Below are positions 43,071-60,353 of a DNA stretch of 64,000 nucleotides, in pieces. The position numbers and the translations under genes are program-made. Within the stretch, counting starts at the first letter, position 1; each line of letters starts with the position of its first letter. Location of the stretch: positions 193,146 through 257,145 of the forward strand of contig JAGLME010000001.1 in assembly GCA_023140195.1 (NCBI GenBank), given 5' to 3'. This DNA is from Thermoplasmata archaeon (GTDB lineage: Archaea; Thermoplasmatota; Thermoplasmata; RBG-16-68-12; SOIM01). The notes beneath the pieces were generated by a model. It saw only the letters and a program-made list of their open reading frames with translations, did not search any database and had not been told where the DNA came from.

Positions 43071-44483
43071 TCACCGTCTTTTCCAGCGAGGTCCGTCCTT
43101 TGTATCTTCCAGCAAAATGCCTATGTCCGCCAGCCGATCCCTTATCTCGTCCGAGACCTTGAAATCCTTCGCTTCCCTGGCCTTTCCACGCATCTCGACC
43201 AGGAAGTCCATGAGACCGTCCACGACGGTGTCCTGCTCCGTTTCCCTTCCGAAGAGACCGAGAACATCGCCTGTGGTTTCGTAGACTTCACGCACCTTCT
43301 GCAGCGTTTCACTGATCAGTCCGCTTTCGAGAGCGGTGTTGATCTTGGTGGAGAATGTGAACAGATGTGAGATCGCTTCTCTTGTGTTGAAATCGTTGTC
43401 CATGGATTCCTCGAACTTGTGCATGACTTCCTCGACGGCTTTGTCGATTTCATCATCTTGGGAGGCTCTTTCTTCCTTTGCCTGCCATTTGAGGGCGAAA
43501 TGGACGTTCTGAACGGTCTCGACCAAGCGTTCATACCCCTGCTTAGCTTCCTCCAGCAGTTCATTGGAGAAGTCCACCGGGCTTCGATAATGTGCGTTGA
43601 CCAAGAAGAACCTAAGCACCGCGGGATCATAATCCTCCAGTGCCTCCTTCACCCTCCAGAAGTTCTTCAGCGACTTGGACATCTTCTCTCCGTCAACGTT
43701 CAGGATACCCGTGTGCAGCCAATACCTGACGAACGGTTCCTTTCCTGTCAGCGCTTCTGCTTGAGCTATCTCGGATTCGTGATGCGGGAACATCAGCTCT
43801 GTGGCGCCTCCGTGGATATCGTACTGGTCACCGAAGTAAGCCATACTTATCGCAGTGTCCTCTATGTGCCATCCCGGCCTGCCTTTTCCCCATGGACTGT
43901 CCCAGGTGGGTTCTCCAGGTTTCTCCGCCTTCCAAAGCGCGAAGTCCTCCGGGTTCTTCTTGTTCTCGTCCACCTCGACCCTTGCACCTGGGCGGAGCTT
44001 CTCTAGGACCTGCTTGGAGAGTTTCCCGAAATCGGGGAACTTGTTGACCTCGAAGTAAACGTTGCCGTTCGATTCGTAAGCGAATCCCTTTTCGATCAGG
44101 CCCTTGATCTGGTCCAGGATCTCGGGGATGTACTCGGTCGCCTTGGGATAGATGTTGATGCTGTCAATGCCAAGAGCGTCCATGTCGTCCAGGAACTCCC
44201 TGAAGTACTTCTTCACCAGGTCGGGAACCGGAATATCGGATTCATTGGACCTGTTGATCAGATTGTCGTCCACGTCGGTCACGTTCTGCACGTAGAACAC
44301 GCTGTATCCTCGGTACGTGAGATACTTCGCAATCGTGTCGAAGGCGACGTAGGTCTTGGCATGGCCCAGATGTGTGTAATCGTATGGCGTGACGCCGCAC
44401 ACGAACATGCTCACTCTGTTCCCGTGGAGAGGCTCGAATTCCTCCATTTTGCGATTGAGGGTGTTGTAGACCTGTATGGTCAT
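43071..44483 (-). CDS. cysS: cysteinyl-tRNA synthetase
   Basis: The HIGH motif (HLGHAKTYVAFD), the KMSKS motif (KMSKSLKN) and the Zn-binding Cys region are present. It is 470 aa. Confidence 0.9.
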   Translation of the reverse strand: MTIQVYNTLNRKMEEFEPLHGNRVSMFVCGVTPYDYTHLGHAKTYVAFDTIAKYLTYRGYSVFYVQNVTDVDDNLINRSNESDIPVPDLVKKYFREFLDDMDALGIDSINIYPKATEYIPEILDQIKGLIEKGFAYESNGNVYFEVNKFPDFGKLSKQVLEKLRPGARVEVDENKKNPEDFALWKAEKPGEPTWDSPWGKGRPGWHIEDTAISMAYFGDQYDIHGGATELMFPHHESEIAQAEALTGKEPFVRYWLHTGILNVDGEKMSKSLKNFWRVKEALEDYDPAVLRFFLVNAHYRSPVDFSNELLEEAKQGYERLVETVQNVHFALKWQAKEERASQDDEIDKAVEEVMHKFEESMDNDFNTREAISHLFTFSTKINTALESGLISETLQKVREVYETTGDVLGLFGRETEQDTVVDGLMDFLVEMRGKAREAKDFKVSDEIRDRLADIGILLEDTKDGPRWKRR

Positions 44484-44498
44484 GGTCGGAACATCCTA

Positions 44499-44571
44499 TG
44501 CCCGGGGAGGGAATCGAACCCCCAAAGAACCGATCTGCAGTCGGTCACATTAGCCACTCTGTCACCCGGGC
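44499..44571 (-). tRNA. tRNA-Cys (anticodon GCA)
   Basis: The reverse complement folds as a cloverleaf: the acceptor stem GCCCGGG/CCCGGGC, the anticodon stem ACCGA/TCGGT with loop CTGCAGA (GCA), a T-arm containing GTTCGATTC and a discriminator A. CCA is not encoded. It lies 16 nt upstream of the cysS start. Confidence 0.8.
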
Positions 44572-44645: not shown

Positions 44646-45167
44646 TCAGTACCACTTTCTGCACTGGTAACATCTCCACCTTCGGTACCGTGGGCTGTAG
44701 ACCAAAGATACCCTACACTTCGGGCAGGCGTGCTTTCCGAGGCCATACCTCGCCTTGTTCACCGCGTACTCATTCTTGAGGTTCCCAATCCTGATTCTTA
44801 TCGGAATGGCCATTATGAGCGCTACGAACAGGAATATCGTTCCGATTGGCAAATCACGGACTGTTAGACTGAAAAGGATTGGATAAAGGATGATATATGA
44901 GACGATGTTGACCCTTGTCGCCCCTCCATAGGTACCTCTGACCGCGAAGAGGCTCGAATCCCCGACCTCTCTGAGGATCCTCAGTTTCAGTATGATCGAA
45001 GAAAGAATCGATGACACTATCAAGAACACCGATCCAATGAAGAGGAACATGCCTATCGACGCAAATAGCGCCCTGACGCTGAGGATCAGCCACGAGACGA
45101 AGTAAATGGTCGCAGGCATCAGAGCTGCGAGGTTCCAAAGTAGCAGGAGGTTCGATTTCAGTGTCAA
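44646..45167 (-). CDS. membrane protein with C-terminal zinc ribbon
   Basis: It has four TM helices followed by CPKCR...CYQCRKWY (CxxC-x14-CxxC). Confidence 0.45.
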   Translation of the reverse strand: MTLKSNLLLLWNLAALMPATIYFVSWLILSVRALFASIGMFLFIGSVFLIVSSILSSIILKLRILREVGDSSLFAVRGTYGGATRVNIVSYIILYPILFSLTVRDLPIGTIFLFVALIMAIPIRIRIGNLKNEYAVNKARYGLGKHACPKCRVSLVYSPRYRRWRCYQCRKWY

Positions 45168-45894
45168 GTGTCAACCAGCTCCGTCCATGTGTCTTGTTTC
45201 TTCGGTGCATATTTCAGGCGTTCCATCTCTATCAGATTCAGTGATATCAATATGACGCATTAGAAATCTGGTACTGAGCTTTTCTATTGAACCTCTATTC
45301 CTTCGAACCCCAGAAGCACTAGCGCCCCGCTTTCGAAAACGGCCACCCATTCCTCATCCGAAAGCTCCGCGCACGCCCCCCACTGGCTTCCTCCCTTGTT
45401 ACAGCGCTCTCCACATCTTATGCATCTGTTCAACATATCATCGATCATGTCACTCCCCCCTAGATTCGTTACAGTGAAATGAAAGAGGATAAGGCCCGCG
45501 ACTTCATGCAGAACGCGGGCCGTTTGCTAGATATTTCCCCCTGAGTCCTCAGCGTGGTGCCGCCGGTGGGAGGGGGCCTTGGTAGGTTGAGCCGCCCCAC
45601 TGGCGCTAACTCGGATATCTAGCAATCACCTCCGTAATTCGCATTGCTATCACAGACTAACCTGGACTTGATGGCGAAACATTCTTTCTTCAAGACTCCC
45701 CCTCGCTGGCCACAATCCCTGGAGAATGAGCGAATCCTCCCTCCTCACCTCCACCGTTCTTAAAGGCAGTCATCGATACTCGAAATCCTATATTAGTCTT
45801 ACGCCTGTTTGATTGTCGATATGCCATACTGTATGAATTTCCATCTACTTATTCGCACAGATGGACTCTGGTATCGGCTCTCACATGCGCGGAT
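45168..45894. ncRNA. 727-bp ORF-free GC-rich region with nested inverted repeats: candidate structured ncRNA (identity unresolved)
   Basis: No ORF of 60 aa or more is present. A perfect 8-bp hairpin GGCCCGCG(13 nt)CGCGGGCC lies at 45493-45521. A perfect 10-bp long-range stem TGCTAGATAT...ATATCTAGCA at 45525-45624 encloses CCCCC/GGGGG and CTGA/TCAG sub-stems. Confidence 0.3.
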
Positions 45895-47526
45895 CTATTT
45901 CCTCACCTTCAGAATATACACGTCCTCCTGGGCTGCTGTGTTGGTGTAGATCAAGTGATTGTCCCGAATCGTGTTCCTGAAAGCAGTGTCATCGACAACC
46001 ACAGCTCCTCCCGGATGTAGTTGCGCCCCGACTGAAGTCCATCTATCTTCCAAAAGGAGGTAATCGTAGGATTCGATGCTCAAGTCATTGACCAACCTGG
46101 GGGGCAGAAAACCATCTCCTTCCCCTCCGTAGAACCCGCCGATGGTGTACGACACCCTCTGCTCAGTCCCAAGCACGTAGAGCTGATGCTGGTCCACAAA
46201 GGTCATGCTTTCGAACTCGTATTGGTACGTGGTGTTCTCAACATCGAAGAAATGAACGCTGCCGTATGCGAAAGGTGTGGTGAGCAGGATCAGGGAAAGA
46301 GTTCCCGCGGCGATGCCGGCCTTCGTGAACTTGCTTTTGGCCCTGGCAATGGAATAGGAAACCGCGATCCCGATCGATATCGCAAGCGCCACATCAATGA
46401 AATCAAACGACCTGTACAACAGAACGAACGATACCGGGTCCAATCCCCAAAGGAAGGAGAATAGCATTACCGAGATGGGCGCCATGAAACCGGCCACAAC
46501 AAGGGCTCTGTAGCGCGTCTCAGTGTTCCTAATCACGTTCAAGCCGGCCAGGCCTATGAAAAGCAGGATGAGATATGGGATTGACCATAAAAGCAGGTCC
46601 GATTTCGTCTGCAATGTTCCTGCAAAAATGTCAGTGAAATGGTTCAGCACAAGCAGAAAGATCGCGCCCAACAAGAACAAAGCCTTCTGATCGAAGAACT
46701 TGGGTAGCACCCTCTTCTCGTGGGAGTAGAAGAACCAAGGTCTCATCCTCGAAGGTGATGAAAGGTAGATGGATAGAAGGGCCATAATGAAGTACACTGA
46801 GAGGAAAAGAGCAACTGCATTGACATTCGCAACGTCCAAGAAGAATGGCATGTCGACCGAGATGTAGAACCAGAAGAGGAACATGATGAGGAGGGGTCCA
46901 AGGCACACATCCAAGGTGAAGTCTGTGGCCTTCCAGGTGCCATCCTTCAATCTCTGGATGTTCTGTGCGGCCATTATCAGCGTTATCATGGAGAAGACCA
47001 TCAGCGATGTCAAGTGATGCAACAGAGGCATCAGGATAAGGAGAAAAGCGCAAAGCAGCCTCTTTCTCGGATCTTCCCTTTCATAGTACAGATAGAGAAT
47101 CAGCGGAAGTAGGGTGAAGCCCAAAGCTTGCTTCATCACCGCCGCTGTGAGAAAGACGTAGAACCCGCAGAGGGCGAGGAAAAGGCCGGCGAAGACGGCC
47201 GCTGTCCTGCTCTGGGTTATCTTGTAGGCGAGAACGTACACCAGGACGACGGACATGGAAGTCATAAGAGGGATGAGGATCTGGACGAAGTACAGGGGTT
47301 CCTCCGAACTGATGAGGGAGGCCATGGTTATGATCATGCCGAAGATGGGTAGCTTGGTGTTGTACTCGCCCATGGTCCACTCGCCGCTGGAAATGACGTC
47401 GTTGCTGATCTTGGCCAGGGGAAAACCGTCTATGTTGTAGGGCAATGAAGAGAACAGAAGAGGCACGAGCCTGATGGCTAAGGCGGTGAAATAGAGGAAG
47501 AGTATGGGTACTAGATGCTTTCTCAC
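45895..47526 (-). CDS. large polytopic membrane protein, possibly a GT-C-fold glycosyltransferase
   Basis: About 12 TM helices occupy the N-terminal 400 aa, with an early DGFPLA loop, followed by a ~140-aa extracytoplasmic C-terminal domain. The topology resembles ArnT/PMT/AglB-type enzymes, but no WWDYG motif is present. The start overlaps the downstream FtsX permease gene by 4 nt. Confidence 0.4.
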   Translation of the reverse strand: MRKHLVPILFLYFTALAIRLVPLLFSSLPYNIDGFPLAKISNDVISSGEWTMGEYNTKLPIFGMIITMASLISSEEPLYFVQILIPLMTSMSVVLVYVLAYKITQSRTAAVFAGLFLALCGFYVFLTAAVMKQALGFTLLPLILYLYYEREDPRKRLLCAFLLILMPLLHHLTSLMVFSMITLIMAAQNIQRLKDGTWKATDFTLDVCLGPLLIMFLFWFYISVDMPFFLDVANVNAVALFLSVYFIMALLSIYLSSPSRMRPWFFYSHEKRVLPKFFDQKALFLLGAIFLLVLNHFTDIFAGTLQTKSDLLLWSIPYLILLFIGLAGLNVIRNTETRYRALVVAGFMAPISVMLFSFLWGLDPVSFVLLYRSFDFIDVALAISIGIAVSYSIARAKSKFTKAGIAAGTLSLILLTTPFAYGSVHFFDVENTTYQYEFESMTFVDQHQLYVLGTEQRVSYTIGGFYGGEGDGFLPPRLVNDLSIESYDYLLLEDRWTSVGAQLHPGGAVVVDDTAFRNTIRDNHLIYTNTAAQEDVYILKVRK

Positions 47527-51374: not shown

Positions 51375-51773
51375 TCAGACCTCAAGGAGCTCCTTCACCC
51401 ATGAGTAGAATCTTTCTGTTTCCTTCAAAGCAACGTCCGCGATCTTCCTTGAGAGAAGGGTTTCAGTATACTCAGCTTTCGTCTTCTGGCTGAGCACATT
51501 GGAAAACTGTTTCATTTTTGAAGAAATCACACCGCTTTCGAAGGGCAATTGGCGAAGTAGCGGGAGGACATCAGAGTGTCTTTCACCGGTGCTTCTTATG
51601 CCGAGATAGAAGACGAGAAGGGCATCGGCCGAGTTGATGCAGCAGTGAACAGAGTTCCCCACAGCCGAATTCCAATGTTCCCTTTCAAGGGCATTCTTCG
51701 CGGACTGGAGATATTCGTCCGCCTTCTGTAGAAAATTCCGATACTTCGATTTGGAGACTTTCCGGGTTCTCAT
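51375..51773 (-). CDS. HEPN-domain protein (toxin of HEPN-MNT pair)
   Basis: The ~130-aa all-helical protein carries an R-x4-H motif (RSTGERH). It overlaps the upstream MNT gene by 4 nt. Confidence 0.6.
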   Translation of the reverse strand: MRTRKVSKSKYRNFLQKADEYLQSAKNALEREHWNSAVGNSVHCCINSADALLVFYLGIRSTGERHSDVLPLLRQLPFESGVISSKMKQFSNVLSQKTKAEYTETLLSRKIADVALKETERFYSWVKELLEV

Positions 51774-52366
51774 AGCAGCTCCTCCAAAGACCTCCCACGT
51801 ACGTGAATATGGCTCTTTTTGGTTTCCTCGATCAGGCCTGAGTTTTCCGAACGCTTCAGCTCAGATGGACTAAGAACCAGAGCGGATAAGGGGTTGCCGT
51901 AGGCCTTGGATATTACAAGTTGAAGCCTGCCGATTATGTCCATCACTTCTCTTTTCTTACTGGTAACCACGAGCACGTCGATGTCGCTCGAGGTCTCTTC
52001 CTCGCCGCGAGCGACACTTCCGAATAGAAAAACCGAAGCTGAGGTACCCTCGAAAGCTTTTCCGATTCTCCGAACTAGTTCTGACCGCGCACCAGACTCA
52101 CCTTCGAAAAGGGGCTGGAGATCCTCGATCAATGGAGATTCTTTGTTCAACGAGATGACGTAGGCTCTCCCGTGGGAGGATATGGTGACGAGGTTGAAGG
52201 CTTCGAGTGCTTTCAGAGCTTTGAGAGCGCCAGGATGCGAGAGGTCAGCGAATGAGGCGAGCTCTCTTCCGGTGAAACGGCGATCTGGATAGCGAAGGAG
52301 GATCCTGAGAACGGATGTCTTGGCAGGGGATGCGATTAGATTCTCGACGTAGTTCTGGAATTTCAT
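51770..52366 (-). CDS. minimal nucleotidyltransferase (MNT) with N-terminal winged-helix domain
   Basis: The NTase motif LFGSVARGEEETSSDIDVLVV (GS-x9-13-DxD) follows an N-terminal HTH (FTGRELASFADLSHPGALKALKALE). Confidence 0.65.
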   Translation of the reverse strand: MKFQNYVENLIASPAKTSVLRILLRYPDRRFTGRELASFADLSHPGALKALKALEAFNLVTISSHGRAYVISLNKESPLIEDLQPLFEGESGARSELVRRIGKAFEGTSASVFLFGSVARGEEETSSDIDVLVVTSKKREVMDIIGRLQLVISKAYGNPLSALVLSPSELKRSENSGLIEETKKSHIHVRGRSLEELL

Positions 52367-58503: not shown

Positions 58504-59013
58504 CTATGCTGTGTGTAATATGTTGAAGCTCCAGTAGACTAGATATCCATATTCTGGCGTGCATGTACCTTCATCGCATGTATATCCCTTGCCTGGGTAG
58601 TGGATGAAGATATCACCGTGATTTGTGCCCTTGCTTGCATCTTCGTTGATGAAAGATGTGAATTCCGCATATCCGTACCAGGTGCCTTGGACATCCATAT
58701 ATGGCACTCCTTCTTGGTCTGGATGGGGGACGAATTCCCTTCCCACAGTTGGTGGCTCATAATCCTCGAATCCTCCTGGTCGAGCCTTGGGTGGGCTGGT
58801 ACTTCTGTACTCAATTGAGATGACGTAGTAAGTCGCCACCCAGCGGCAGGCTTCCAGTTCGAAGTTAACACGAGCATCTTCAACATACGTCCCCTCGACC
58901 TTCACTCCTGTCTTGAAGTTCACGACCTTCTCCAGAGTTGCTACTGATCCATAGCTCATTACCGGAGCGGCTAGCATAAATGCAGCCAATAGTGCCAACA
59001 GTATCCTTTTCAT
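58504..59013 (-). CDS. secreted ~17-kDa Cys-containing protein, paralogue A (unknown function)
   Basis: It has a signal peptide (MKRILLALLAAFMLAAPVMSYG) and four conserved Cys. It shares ~60% identity with 59838..60353. GGAGGTGA lies 7 nt before the ATG. Confidence 0.6.
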   Translation of the reverse strand: MKRILLALLAAFMLAAPVMSYGSVATLEKVVNFKTGVKVEGTYVEDARVNFELEACRWVATYYVISIEYRSTSPPKARPGGFEDYEPPTVGREFVPHPDQEGVPYMDVQGTWYGYAEFTSFINEDASKGTNHGDIFIHYPGKGYTCDEGTCTPEYGYLVYWSFNILHTA

Positions 59014-59837: not shown

Positions 59838-60353
59838 TCATGCACTTCGGTGGTGTATGTTAAAGCTCCAATATACCAGATATCCATAGTCAGGCTCGCA
59901 ATTCTGATTATCGGAACAGGTGTATGGCGTGTCAGGGTAGTGGATTATGATGTCGCCGTGGTTGATACCGTGCTTTGCATCTGGGTTGATGAATGATGTG
60001 AATTCTGCATACCCGAACCAAACTCCCATTTGATCCCAAAAGGGCACTTCTTCTTGGCCTGGATATACCACGAAGTCTCTGCCTACAGTCGGCGGATCAT
60101 GATTCAGGAATCCTCCCGGTGCAGCGTGCCATGGTGTTGTGTGTCGGTACTCGATTGAGACCTCGTACAACTGAGCAACCCAGCGGCATGATATGATCTC
60201 CCACTCGACGCGGGCATCGTCAACATACGATGCGTCTTCCTTAATACCCGTATCATAGTCTACGACCTCTTCGATGGTTGCCACGGTGCCAAAACTCATA
60301 AACGGAATAGCCATAAGCGAGGCAGCCATTAGAGCGAACAGTAGCTTCTTCAT
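59838..60353 (-). CDS. secreted ~17-kDa Cys-containing protein, paralogue B (unknown function)
   Basis: It has a signal peptide (MKKLLFALMAASLMAIPFMSFG). The conserved blocks ARVxxExxxCRWVA, IEYR, PPTVGR, YGYAEFTSFIN, NHGDIxIHYP, YTC and YGYLVYWSFNI are shared with paralogue A. Confidence 0.6.
   Translation of the reverse strand: MKKLLFALMAASLMAIPFMSFGTVATIEEVVDYDTGIKEDASYVDDARVEWEIISCRWVAQLYEVSIEYRHTTPWHAAPGGFLNHDPPTVGRDFVVYPGQEEVPFWDQMGVWFGYAEFTSFINPDAKHGINHGDIIIHYPDTPYTCSDNQNCEPDYGYLVYWSFNIHHRSA

Follow-up and report, generated by a model that had tools for sequence, protein, structure and literature searches.

What occupies the 727 nt between two protein genes at positions 45168-45894 of the 64,000-nt stretch of Thermoplasmata archaeon DNA analyzed here (the window)? 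The initial annotation of the window described this region as a gene desert with nested perfect inverted repeats and proposed a candidate structured noncoding RNA (ncRNA). The region was found to contain a small gene for a cysteine-rich protein and, upstream of it on the same minus strand, a conserved non-coding block of ~320 nt (about 45767-45453). We tentatively read this block, with a probability of roughly 45%, as a structured 5' leader of the small gene's mRNA that would act in cis. The matching record for the window is the Thermoplasmata archaeon metagenome-assembled genome (MAG) GCA_030638805.1, contig DAOWDX010000007.1, and several metagenome assemblies carry identical copies.

Conservation of the block and of the small gene

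Five distinct orthologous copies of the locus were compared, the four outside the window having been reached through homologues of the upstream 543-aa protein and of the small open reading frame (ORF). They fall into clade 1, comprising the window, L133, and L010, and clade 2, comprising L007 and L139. When the window was compared with L010 in 50-nt bins, positions 45450-45750 were 83-92% identical, with the exception of one variable bin corresponding to a hairpin tip, while the 543-aa gene reached ~70-80% and the spacers at 45850-45899 and 45150-45299 only 33-60%. Pairwise identities within clade 1 were 81-86% for the block, 42-64% for the spacer, and 69-78% for the small ORF. Between the clades, the values were 64-74% for the 3' domain of the block, 57-65% for its 5' domain, 48-57% for the spacer, and 63-71% for the ORF.

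No conserved reading frame was present in the block, each of the six frames containing 3-10 stops in the five genomes, and the short ORFs inside it had no match in Pfam. Since the block is conserved above its coding neighbors, has stops in all frames, and lacks Pfam matches, the alignment indicates that it is under purifying selection and is non-coding. A 24-codon TTG frame (45619-45693, minus strand) was considered as an upstream ORF and rejected: it is open to the same UAG in all five genomes, yet its changes fall mostly in codon positions 1 and 2, and its start codon is absent from clade 2.

The term gene desert was wrong, as about 165 nt of the region are a real, conserved ORF, annotated in the source assembly as hypothetical protein KAR39_01020. 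It is literally true that no ORF of at least 60 aa lies inside the region, the longest two having 59 and 54 aa; the shorter of these is the small ORF, which is missed by ORF-length cut-offs and is uncalled in two of the five assemblies. The small ORF is conserved as a coding sequence because it is intact in five genomes and its substitutions occur mainly in third codon positions (by codon position 1/2/3, e.g., 10/11/26 and 15/9/32). The start shared by the copies is probably Met5 at 45436, so that the supposed desert holds a gene of 50 aa.

The encoded protein is acidic and non-hydrophobic, and carries the motif C-x2-C-G-E-x-C-x9-C followed by ELSDEEW. Its homologues P0034-P0042 and L011 were 37-66% identical, and no relative was found in Pfam or NCBIfam, nor a significant one in PDB by profile search. 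The AlphaFold model was of low confidence (pLDDT, the predicted local distance difference test, of 64.6), and was therefore too weak for a fold search. The product is possibly a zinc-finger-like micro-protein, a label for which the model establishes neither the fold nor zinc binding. Zinc-finger micro-proteins of the C(P)XCG type have been described in Haloferax. The small protein is like these in its length of 50 aa, its CxxCG with two further cysteines, and its lack of a Pfam or NCBIfam family, but unlike them it has a single CxxCG motif and an acidic ELSDEEW helix.

Copies beyond the five were sought in several collections. Among the GTDB representative genomes, the 543-aa protein query found no relative and the DNA pattern CCGANTTANCGCCAGT-N30-55-ACGCTGAGG had no match. 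The metagenome scan with the small-protein profile returned L011 alone, a distant locus without the block. The viral contigs contained no relative of the small protein and only chance matches to a 14-base pattern, which were not extended by nhmmer, and blastn against plasmids and phages gave no match to the element. In all fetched loci and the whole window, nhmmer and the covariance model R1 recovered only the five orthologous copies, without a paralogue and without a divergent version of the block upstream of the distant small-ORF homologues. A full-text literature search found nothing on this element. Thus, the element is restricted to about five closely related metagenomic Thermoplasmata genomes, roughly one genus-level clade. 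Block and small ORF occur together in all five, and both are missing in L008 and L009.

Upstream of the distant small-ORF homologues of L140 and L011, a non-coding region of 400-600 nt with dense short repeats was observed (L140:1540-1760, L011:1890-2060). The repeats, CCTAGG, CCTAAGG(T), and CCTTGC, are spaced ~10-20 nt apart. The two regions share GTGACATCCTAGGGAC and ACATCCTTGCCGGATCCTTG, are unrelated in sequence to the block, and look like an iteron or binding-site array.

Predicted anatomy of the RNA

The repeats that had drawn attention to the region are indeed there. The arms GGCCCGCG (45493-45500) and CGCGGGCC (45514-45521) are separated by 13 nt, and the pair TGCTAGATAT (45525-45534) and ATATCTAGCA (45615-45624) has a true length of 11 bp (45524-45534/45615-45625). 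The CCCCC (45537-41) and GGGGG (45572-76) runs and the CTGAG/CTCAG segments (45541-52) are likewise present, but the comparative consensus does not include the pairings proposed for them, CTGA/TCAG among them. The perfect stem does not serve as the core of the structure, being unchanged throughout clade 1 but largely degenerate in clade 2. The CACCTCC and CCTCCC tracts are real as letters; on the minus strand, which is the RNA strand, they are GGAGGUG tracts resembling a Shine-Dalgarno (SD) sequence, and TCACCTCC occurs at 45626-33 and again at 45745-52.

From the window sequence alone, the repeats were only weakly above chance. Over the whole window there were 4 perfect inverted repeats of at least 10 bp with a loop of at most 100 nt, compared with 6.65 expected from dinucleotide shuffles, and 7 of 8 bp with a loop of at most 20 nt, compared with 17.4 expected. 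Within the 727-nt region, P was ~0.03 for the 10-mer and ~0.12 for the 8-mer. The folding z-score of the whole block was -1.46 on the minus and -1.38 on the plus strand, and that of the 159-nt 3' domain was -3.5. The real evidence for the element is comparative, not intrinsic to the window sequence.

The comparison also indicates that the minus strand is the RNA strand. The consensus contained 42 G·U cells versus 9 A·C cells, and the alifold energies of the two halves were -82.7 and -37.4 on the minus strand versus -73.4 and -29.2 on the plus strand. The minus strand also carries both flanking genes, the TATA-like box, and the small ORF. The features are collected in Table 1.

Table 1. Coordinates of the block, the small gene, and the adjoining features in the window. 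SD, Shine-Dalgarno sequence; BRE, transcription factor B recognition element.
Feature	Coordinates	Strand	Basis or conservation
Promoter-like element GCGTAAG ACTAATATAG (BRE/TATA-like)	45788..45804	-	Five-genome alignment A5
H1, predicted 5' hairpin GGAGGUGAG...CUCAUUCUCC, 5' arm SD-like	45721..45752	-	alifold
Middle segment with invariant motifs AGGGGGAGU, CAA.AAG.C, AUAG	45634..45720	-	No helix common to both clades
P1, 5' strand GGAGGUGA	45626..45633	-	Invariant in five genomes; equals the organism's SD consensus
Long arm of the 3' domain (P2, P2c, P3)	45524..45625	-	alifold and pair counts
P2, the 11-bp stem of the initial annotation	45615-25 / 45524-34	-	Perfect in window, L133, L010; degenerate in L007, L139
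P3, with variable apical loop	45605-45593 / 45573-45561	-	10-13 of 13 pairs in every genome
P5, the GC hairpin of the initial annotation (8-bp stem, 13-nt loop)	45493..45521	-	Kept in five genomes
P1, 3' strand UUAUCCUCU, anti-SD-like, closing the predicted three-way junction	45484..45492	-	AUCCUCU invariant
SD of the small ORF, AGGGGGGAG	45453..45461	-	GGGGGGAG invariant in five genomes
Small protein gene, 54 aa from ATG 45448 (50 aa from Met5, 45436)	45284..45448	-	Called in source assembly; intact in five genomes
Spacer 3' of the 543-aa gene	45806..45894	-	Poorly conserved (33-64% identity, indels)
Upstream flanking gene, 543-aa polytopic membrane protein	45895..47526	-	ORF list, translation; its stop codon is the high-coordinate edge of the region
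Downstream gene, membrane protein with C-terminal zinc ribbon, 173 aa (157 aa from ATG)	44646..45167	-	
tRNA-Cys(GCA)	44499-44571	-	
cysS, cysteinyl-tRNA synthetase	43071-44483	-	

The TATA-like sequence CTAATATAG (45796-45788), with GCGTAAG just upstream of it, was invariant in 5/5 genomes. Similar A/T-rich boxes are found ~25 nt before the start codons of leaderless genes in other parts of the window. Because the spacing of the box resembles theirs, we infer a transcription start near G45767, ~25 nt downstream of the box. The first predicted helix of such an RNA, H1, shows one compensatory pair (U-A to C-G in L133) and four one-sided changes, each of which leaves a G·U or A-U pair when read on the minus strand; a 3-nt deletion in L139 falls in its terminal part.

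The 3' domain (45633-45484) is predicted to form a three-way junction, in which P1 encloses a long arm (P2-P3) and the GC hairpin P5. P1 pairs GGAGGUGA with UAUCCUC. The SD consensus of the organism, GGAGGTGAT, precedes the genes at 58504-59013 and 59838-60353, and the GGAGGUG tracts of the block are identical to it. In clade 2, the 3' arm of P2 differs, and of the seven central pairs three are mismatches and three are wobbles. In the adjoining helix P2c (CCGAGUU/GACUC..GG), G-C is replaced by A-U in clade 2, and P3 shows the same replacement in L010 plus several G·U switches. The clade 2 version of P5 differs by C-to-U substitutions, which produce U·G and G·U pairs (they would read A·C on the plus strand), and by a single U-A to A-U swap. 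The unpaired ACGCUGAGG at 45555-45547 was invariant. From P1, the last helix, ~35 poorly conserved nt lead to the SD of the small ORF.

In the consensus, 90.9% of the cells were paired, compared with 42-49% for slid controls, and the covariation score was 0.202, compared with 0.172 in shuffles, a value reached by 7/500 of them. Changes on both sides were found in four pairs of the 3' domain and two of the 5' domain, with compensatory pairs in P2c, P3, P5, and H1. The conservation and covariation analysis proposed in the initial annotation thus showed a block that outdoes the neighboring protein genes in conservation and some helices that are kept by compensatory or G·U changes. Together, these values give the fold of H1 plus the 3' three-way junction modest support, which is suggestive, not proof.

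Further contacts were looked for in the alignment. Candidate pseudoknots or kissing loops were noted by eye, one between the P3 loop and the G-rich 3' segment and another, UGCAUG/CAUGCA, in clade 2, but their positions shift between the clades and no claim is made. A pairing of the conserved loop ACGCUGAGG with UCCUCAGCGU in the 173-aa coding sequence, corresponding to a perfect 10-nt inverted repeat, ACGCTGAGGA/TCCTCAGCGT (window 45076-45085 and 45546-45555), was rejected as probably due to chance, since it exists in the window only and is absent in the four homologues.

A proposed structured leader weighed against its alternatives

In the mechanism that we propose for a leader, the conserved box at 45804-45788 would start an RNA near 45767, which over ~320 nt would fold into H1 and the 3' three-way junction. 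There, the SD-like GGAGGUGA would pair with the anti-SD-like UAUCCUC in P1 and enclose the P2-P3 arm and P5. Without a conserved terminator in between, the RNA would run into the SD and start codon of the 50-54 aa cysteine-rich gene, and the transcript would probably extend into the gene of the 173-aa membrane zinc-ribbon protein. The leader would control ribosome access or bind a factor, thereby tuning expression of the small ORF, with the invariant unpaired ACGCUGAGG and the CCGARUUA loops as candidate recognition sites. AUCCUCU can pair, on paper, with either GGAGGUGA, acting as a decoy SD, or the true SD (GGGGGA), and P1 pairing could keep the anti-SD-like strand off the latter. Such a switch by SD sequestration is put forward here as a hypothesis. 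As to the original proposal of a structured ncRNA, the conserved non-coding block does span both of the flagged hairpins, but the term mRNA leader appears to suit it better than that of an independent ncRNA gene.

Several observations weigh against this leader reading. Across the clades, the block (57-74%) is only about as conserved as the small ORF, and by nhmmer and covariance model the block is missing from L011, L134-138, and L140, whose small-ORF homologues are more distant; therefore, the block is not required for that gene and is a lineage-specific addition. The comparison comprises only five sequences in two tight clades, which also served to derive the structure, and the covariation statistics are weak: 4 pairs had changes on both sides versus 2.6 in shuffles, a count reached by 82/500 of them. 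All pairs of P1, the key helix of the switch model, are invariant, so that covariation speaks neither for nor against it, and H1 is the only helix of the 5' half that both clades share. An alternative structure that would sequester the SD or act as a terminator/antiterminator was not consistently predicted, the minimum-free-energy and partition-function folds of the five sequences disagreeing. Finally, both the transcription start and co-transcription with the ORF are what we infer from the sequence.

Bacterial translational riboswitches and leader RNAs use anti-SD/SD pairing as a general class. The block is like them in its presumed 5' untranslated region (UTR) position on the same strand as the gene, in its predicted compact multi-helix junction with invariant unpaired nucleotides, and in its C/U-rich AUCCUCU, which can pair with an SD-like decoy or, on paper, the true SD. 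The organism does use an SD consensus, GGAGGUGAU. Unlike them, the block has no recognized ligand or aptamer class in Rfam and no consistently predicted OFF-state helix, is archaeal, and has a range of roughly one genus-level clade. Few riboswitch classes and very few cis-regulatory RNAs of any kind are known in archaea. Autoregulatory protein-binding leaders include those of ribosomal proteins and the archaeal L7Ae 5'-UTR K-turn. Like these, the block would be a structured leader placed immediately before the gene of a small protein that may bind nucleic acids (zinc-finger-like), and its conserved internal loops could bind a protein; unlike them, no K-turn or rRNA mimic was identified in the block, and the small-protein family also occurs without the leader.

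The element is in no described family and is most likely an undescribed, lineage-specific structured leader or small RNA (sRNA). If true, this would add a hitherto undescribed structured RNA to an uncultivated lineage of Thermoplasmata, and would exemplify a long, SD-rich structured leader preceding the gene of a zinc-finger micro-protein, a group of proteins about whose regulation little is known. Its practical reach is limited, as there are about five very close metagenomic genomes, no known ligand or partner, and an uncultivated organism. It is doubtful, and we would give it small odds, that the element constitutes a new class, either a riboswitch-like or protein-responsive three-way-junction leader gating micro-protein translation through competition among decoy SD, anti-SD, and true SD, possibly in response to metal or cysteine, or a new RNA plus micro-protein accessory cassette. 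The context that suggested a metal or cysteine signal consists of the cysteine-rich protein, the zinc-ribbon membrane protein, tRNA-Cys, and cysS.

The strongest competitor, which we nevertheless hold to be unlikely, is a stand-alone sRNA of ~285 nt (~45767 to ~45478, minus strand) that ends at the GC hairpin and its U-rich tail CCUCUUUCAUUU and is trans-acting or protein-bound, the ORF being expressed separately or by read-through. The block's own TATA-like box, the compact three-way junction with its z of -3.5, and the short runs of T that follow the hairpin in clade 1 (window, L133, L010) agree with an sRNA. So does the 3' edge of conservation, which coincides with the GC hairpin and P1 and is followed before the SD by a 22-nt linker of 50-78% identity with a 4-nt indel. 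However, archaeal termination depends on oligo-T, and the T-run after P5 is at most T3-T4 in clade 1 and absent in clade 2 (CCATCCTCTCATAATC), the plus-strand tail being GTTTGC. The terminator scan found nothing at the hairpin (45493-45521), which was thus rejected as an intrinsic terminator, having no conserved oligo-U/T tract. Moreover, a promoter-like box is missing between P5 and the SD of the ORF, the block never occurs without the ORF, and no second copy of the block was found in the window or any fetched locus. The leader is preferred to the sRNA on three grounds: a conserved oligo-T is missing after the block, the interval before the SD is too short to hold a promoter, and block and ORF co-occur.

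Alternatively, the block might act as DNA, in the form of an extended promoter or operator of an operon of the small ORF and the 173-aa gene, or its conservation might reflect uneven neutral divergence with incidental hairpins. We consider this improbable, even though inverted repeats are no commoner in the window than expected by chance, clade 2 has not retained the long stem, the z of the whole block is only -1.46, and many of the conserved stretches are invariant sequence without pairing information. The different, repeat-rich region upstream of the distant ORF homologues, which resembles arrays of DNA-binding sites, points in the same direction. Against a DNA element, 320 nt downstream of a TATA-like box is an odd position for an operator, and the substitutions in H1, P3, and P5 are strand-asymmetric, with the excess of G·U over A·C cells noted above, and several are compensatory, which constraint at the DNA level does not predict. 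The spacers on both sides are 33-64% identical compared with 83-92% for the block; therefore, its conservation is not simply a matter of recent ancestry.

Block and micro-protein could also form a small accessory or mobile cassette, such as an RNA-protein toxin-antitoxin-like or defense-like pair, in a variable slot. The content of the slot does vary (block and ORF in five genomes, MazE-PIN in L008, nothing in L009, where 166 nt separate the 543-aa and 173-aa genes), and block and ORF come and go together, L007 retaining both despite the loss of its 173-aa gene. Against a cassette, the small protein is acidic and non-hydrophobic, unlike type I toxins, and the RNA lacks the tandem repeats of type III antitoxins. 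The locus has no known partner, though no PADLOC search was made; flanking direct repeats and an integrase are absent, as are matches in plasmids, phages, and viral contigs. Homologues of the small ORF have also long resided in the same neighborhood of more distant Thermoplasmata. This explanation is, in our judgment, very improbable.

A decayed pseudogene or a remnant of signal recognition particle (SRP) RNA, RNase P RNA, or a group II intron, for which the size of ~300 nt similar to that of archaeal SRP and RNase P RNAs speaks, can be dismissed almost entirely: the region and its four homologues were negative in Rfam at E<=10, ORF fragments had no Pfam match, tblastn found no similarity to MazE/PIN or other proteins filling the slot in relatives, and a decaying pseudogene would not exceed its coding neighbors in conservation.

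The underlying comparison with Rfam 15 was made by cmscan for the whole window at the gathering threshold, where tRNA was the sole match, and for 44900-46100 and the four homologous loci at E<=10. The only match near the region was DUF2815 RNA (E=5.9, 46012-46070, plus strand), which lies inside the 543-aa coding sequence and was taken as chance. This search had been proposed in the initial annotation, and its negative outcome is one half of what was named there as speaking against an RNA, a lack of transcription being the other. The failure of the initial annotation to match SRP RNA or RNase P RNA signatures by eye was borne out: archaeal SRP RNA (Rfam Archaea_SRP) and archaeal RNase P RNA (RNaseP_arch, RNaseP-T) had no covariance-model match in the block, the window, or the four homologues. 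The block resembles both in its ~300 nt, G+C-rich helices, and archaeal host, but unlike these universal RNAs it is missing from sister genomes at the locus. The sequence AAGUCCAGG of clade 1 bears a faint resemblance to the RNase P CR-I motif, and is not conserved in clade 2. Group II introns (domains V/VI), known archaeal sRNAs, and the other Rfam 15 families were rejected in the same way, to the extent that covariance models can detect them.

A C/D box sRNA, which has a C box RUGAUGA and a D box CUGA 50-70 nt apart joined by a terminal stem, was sought in alignment A5. The best candidate, GUGAUUG, has two mismatches to the C box, with CUGA ~77 nt downstream and no joining terminal stem; the C/D-box Rfam families also had no match in the block, and this identity was rejected. 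A protein-coding gene or pseudogene across the block was likewise rejected, given the stops in all six frames and the lack of Pfam matches and of similarity to the slot proteins of relatives, and no signal of a decayed pseudogene, which the initial annotation had named as an alternative, was found.

Neighboring genes and the variable slot

The genes around the element all lie on the minus strand, in the order FtsX-like permease (two genes), 543-aa membrane protein, block and small ORF, 173-aa membrane/zinc-ribbon protein, tRNA-Cys, cysS, gyrB, and gyrA. The 543-aa protein had no match in Pfam, and its homologues are confined to Thermoplasmata MAGs. In the spacer 3' of its gene, the relatives carry a TTTT(G) run, degenerate in the window, that could be the terminator of this gene. 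The start of the 173-aa gene is ambiguous, being TTG (173 aa) in some assemblies and ATG (157 aa) in others, and an obvious SD is absent before either candidate.

The neighborhood is a hot spot of small accessory modules. In the sister genome L008, a MazE-like antitoxin and a PIN toxin (L008:3477-4213) occupy the slot between the 543-aa and 173-aa genes, and L009 has a solo MazE/AbrB-like ORF (L009:6360-6590) between a 181-aa gene and tRNA-Cys. In the window, a nucleotidyltransferase (NTP_transf_2) is paired with a HEPN protein at 51375-52366 (minus strand), a few kb away from the small ORF, and such a pair (L011:427-1421) adjoins the small-ORF homologue in L011, so that the association recurs.

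tRNA-Cys(GCA) lies 15 nt upstream of cysS on the same strand, an arrangement kept in L007, L009, and L133, and the tRNA and the gene of its own synthetase may be co-transcribed. Farther away, the ORFs of 169 and 171 aa at 58504-59013 and 59838-60353 (both minus strand), ~1.3 kb apart, have a near-identical upstream sequence, GGGAGGAGGTGATAATCA-ATGAA, with the full SD consensus, and are probably paralogues.

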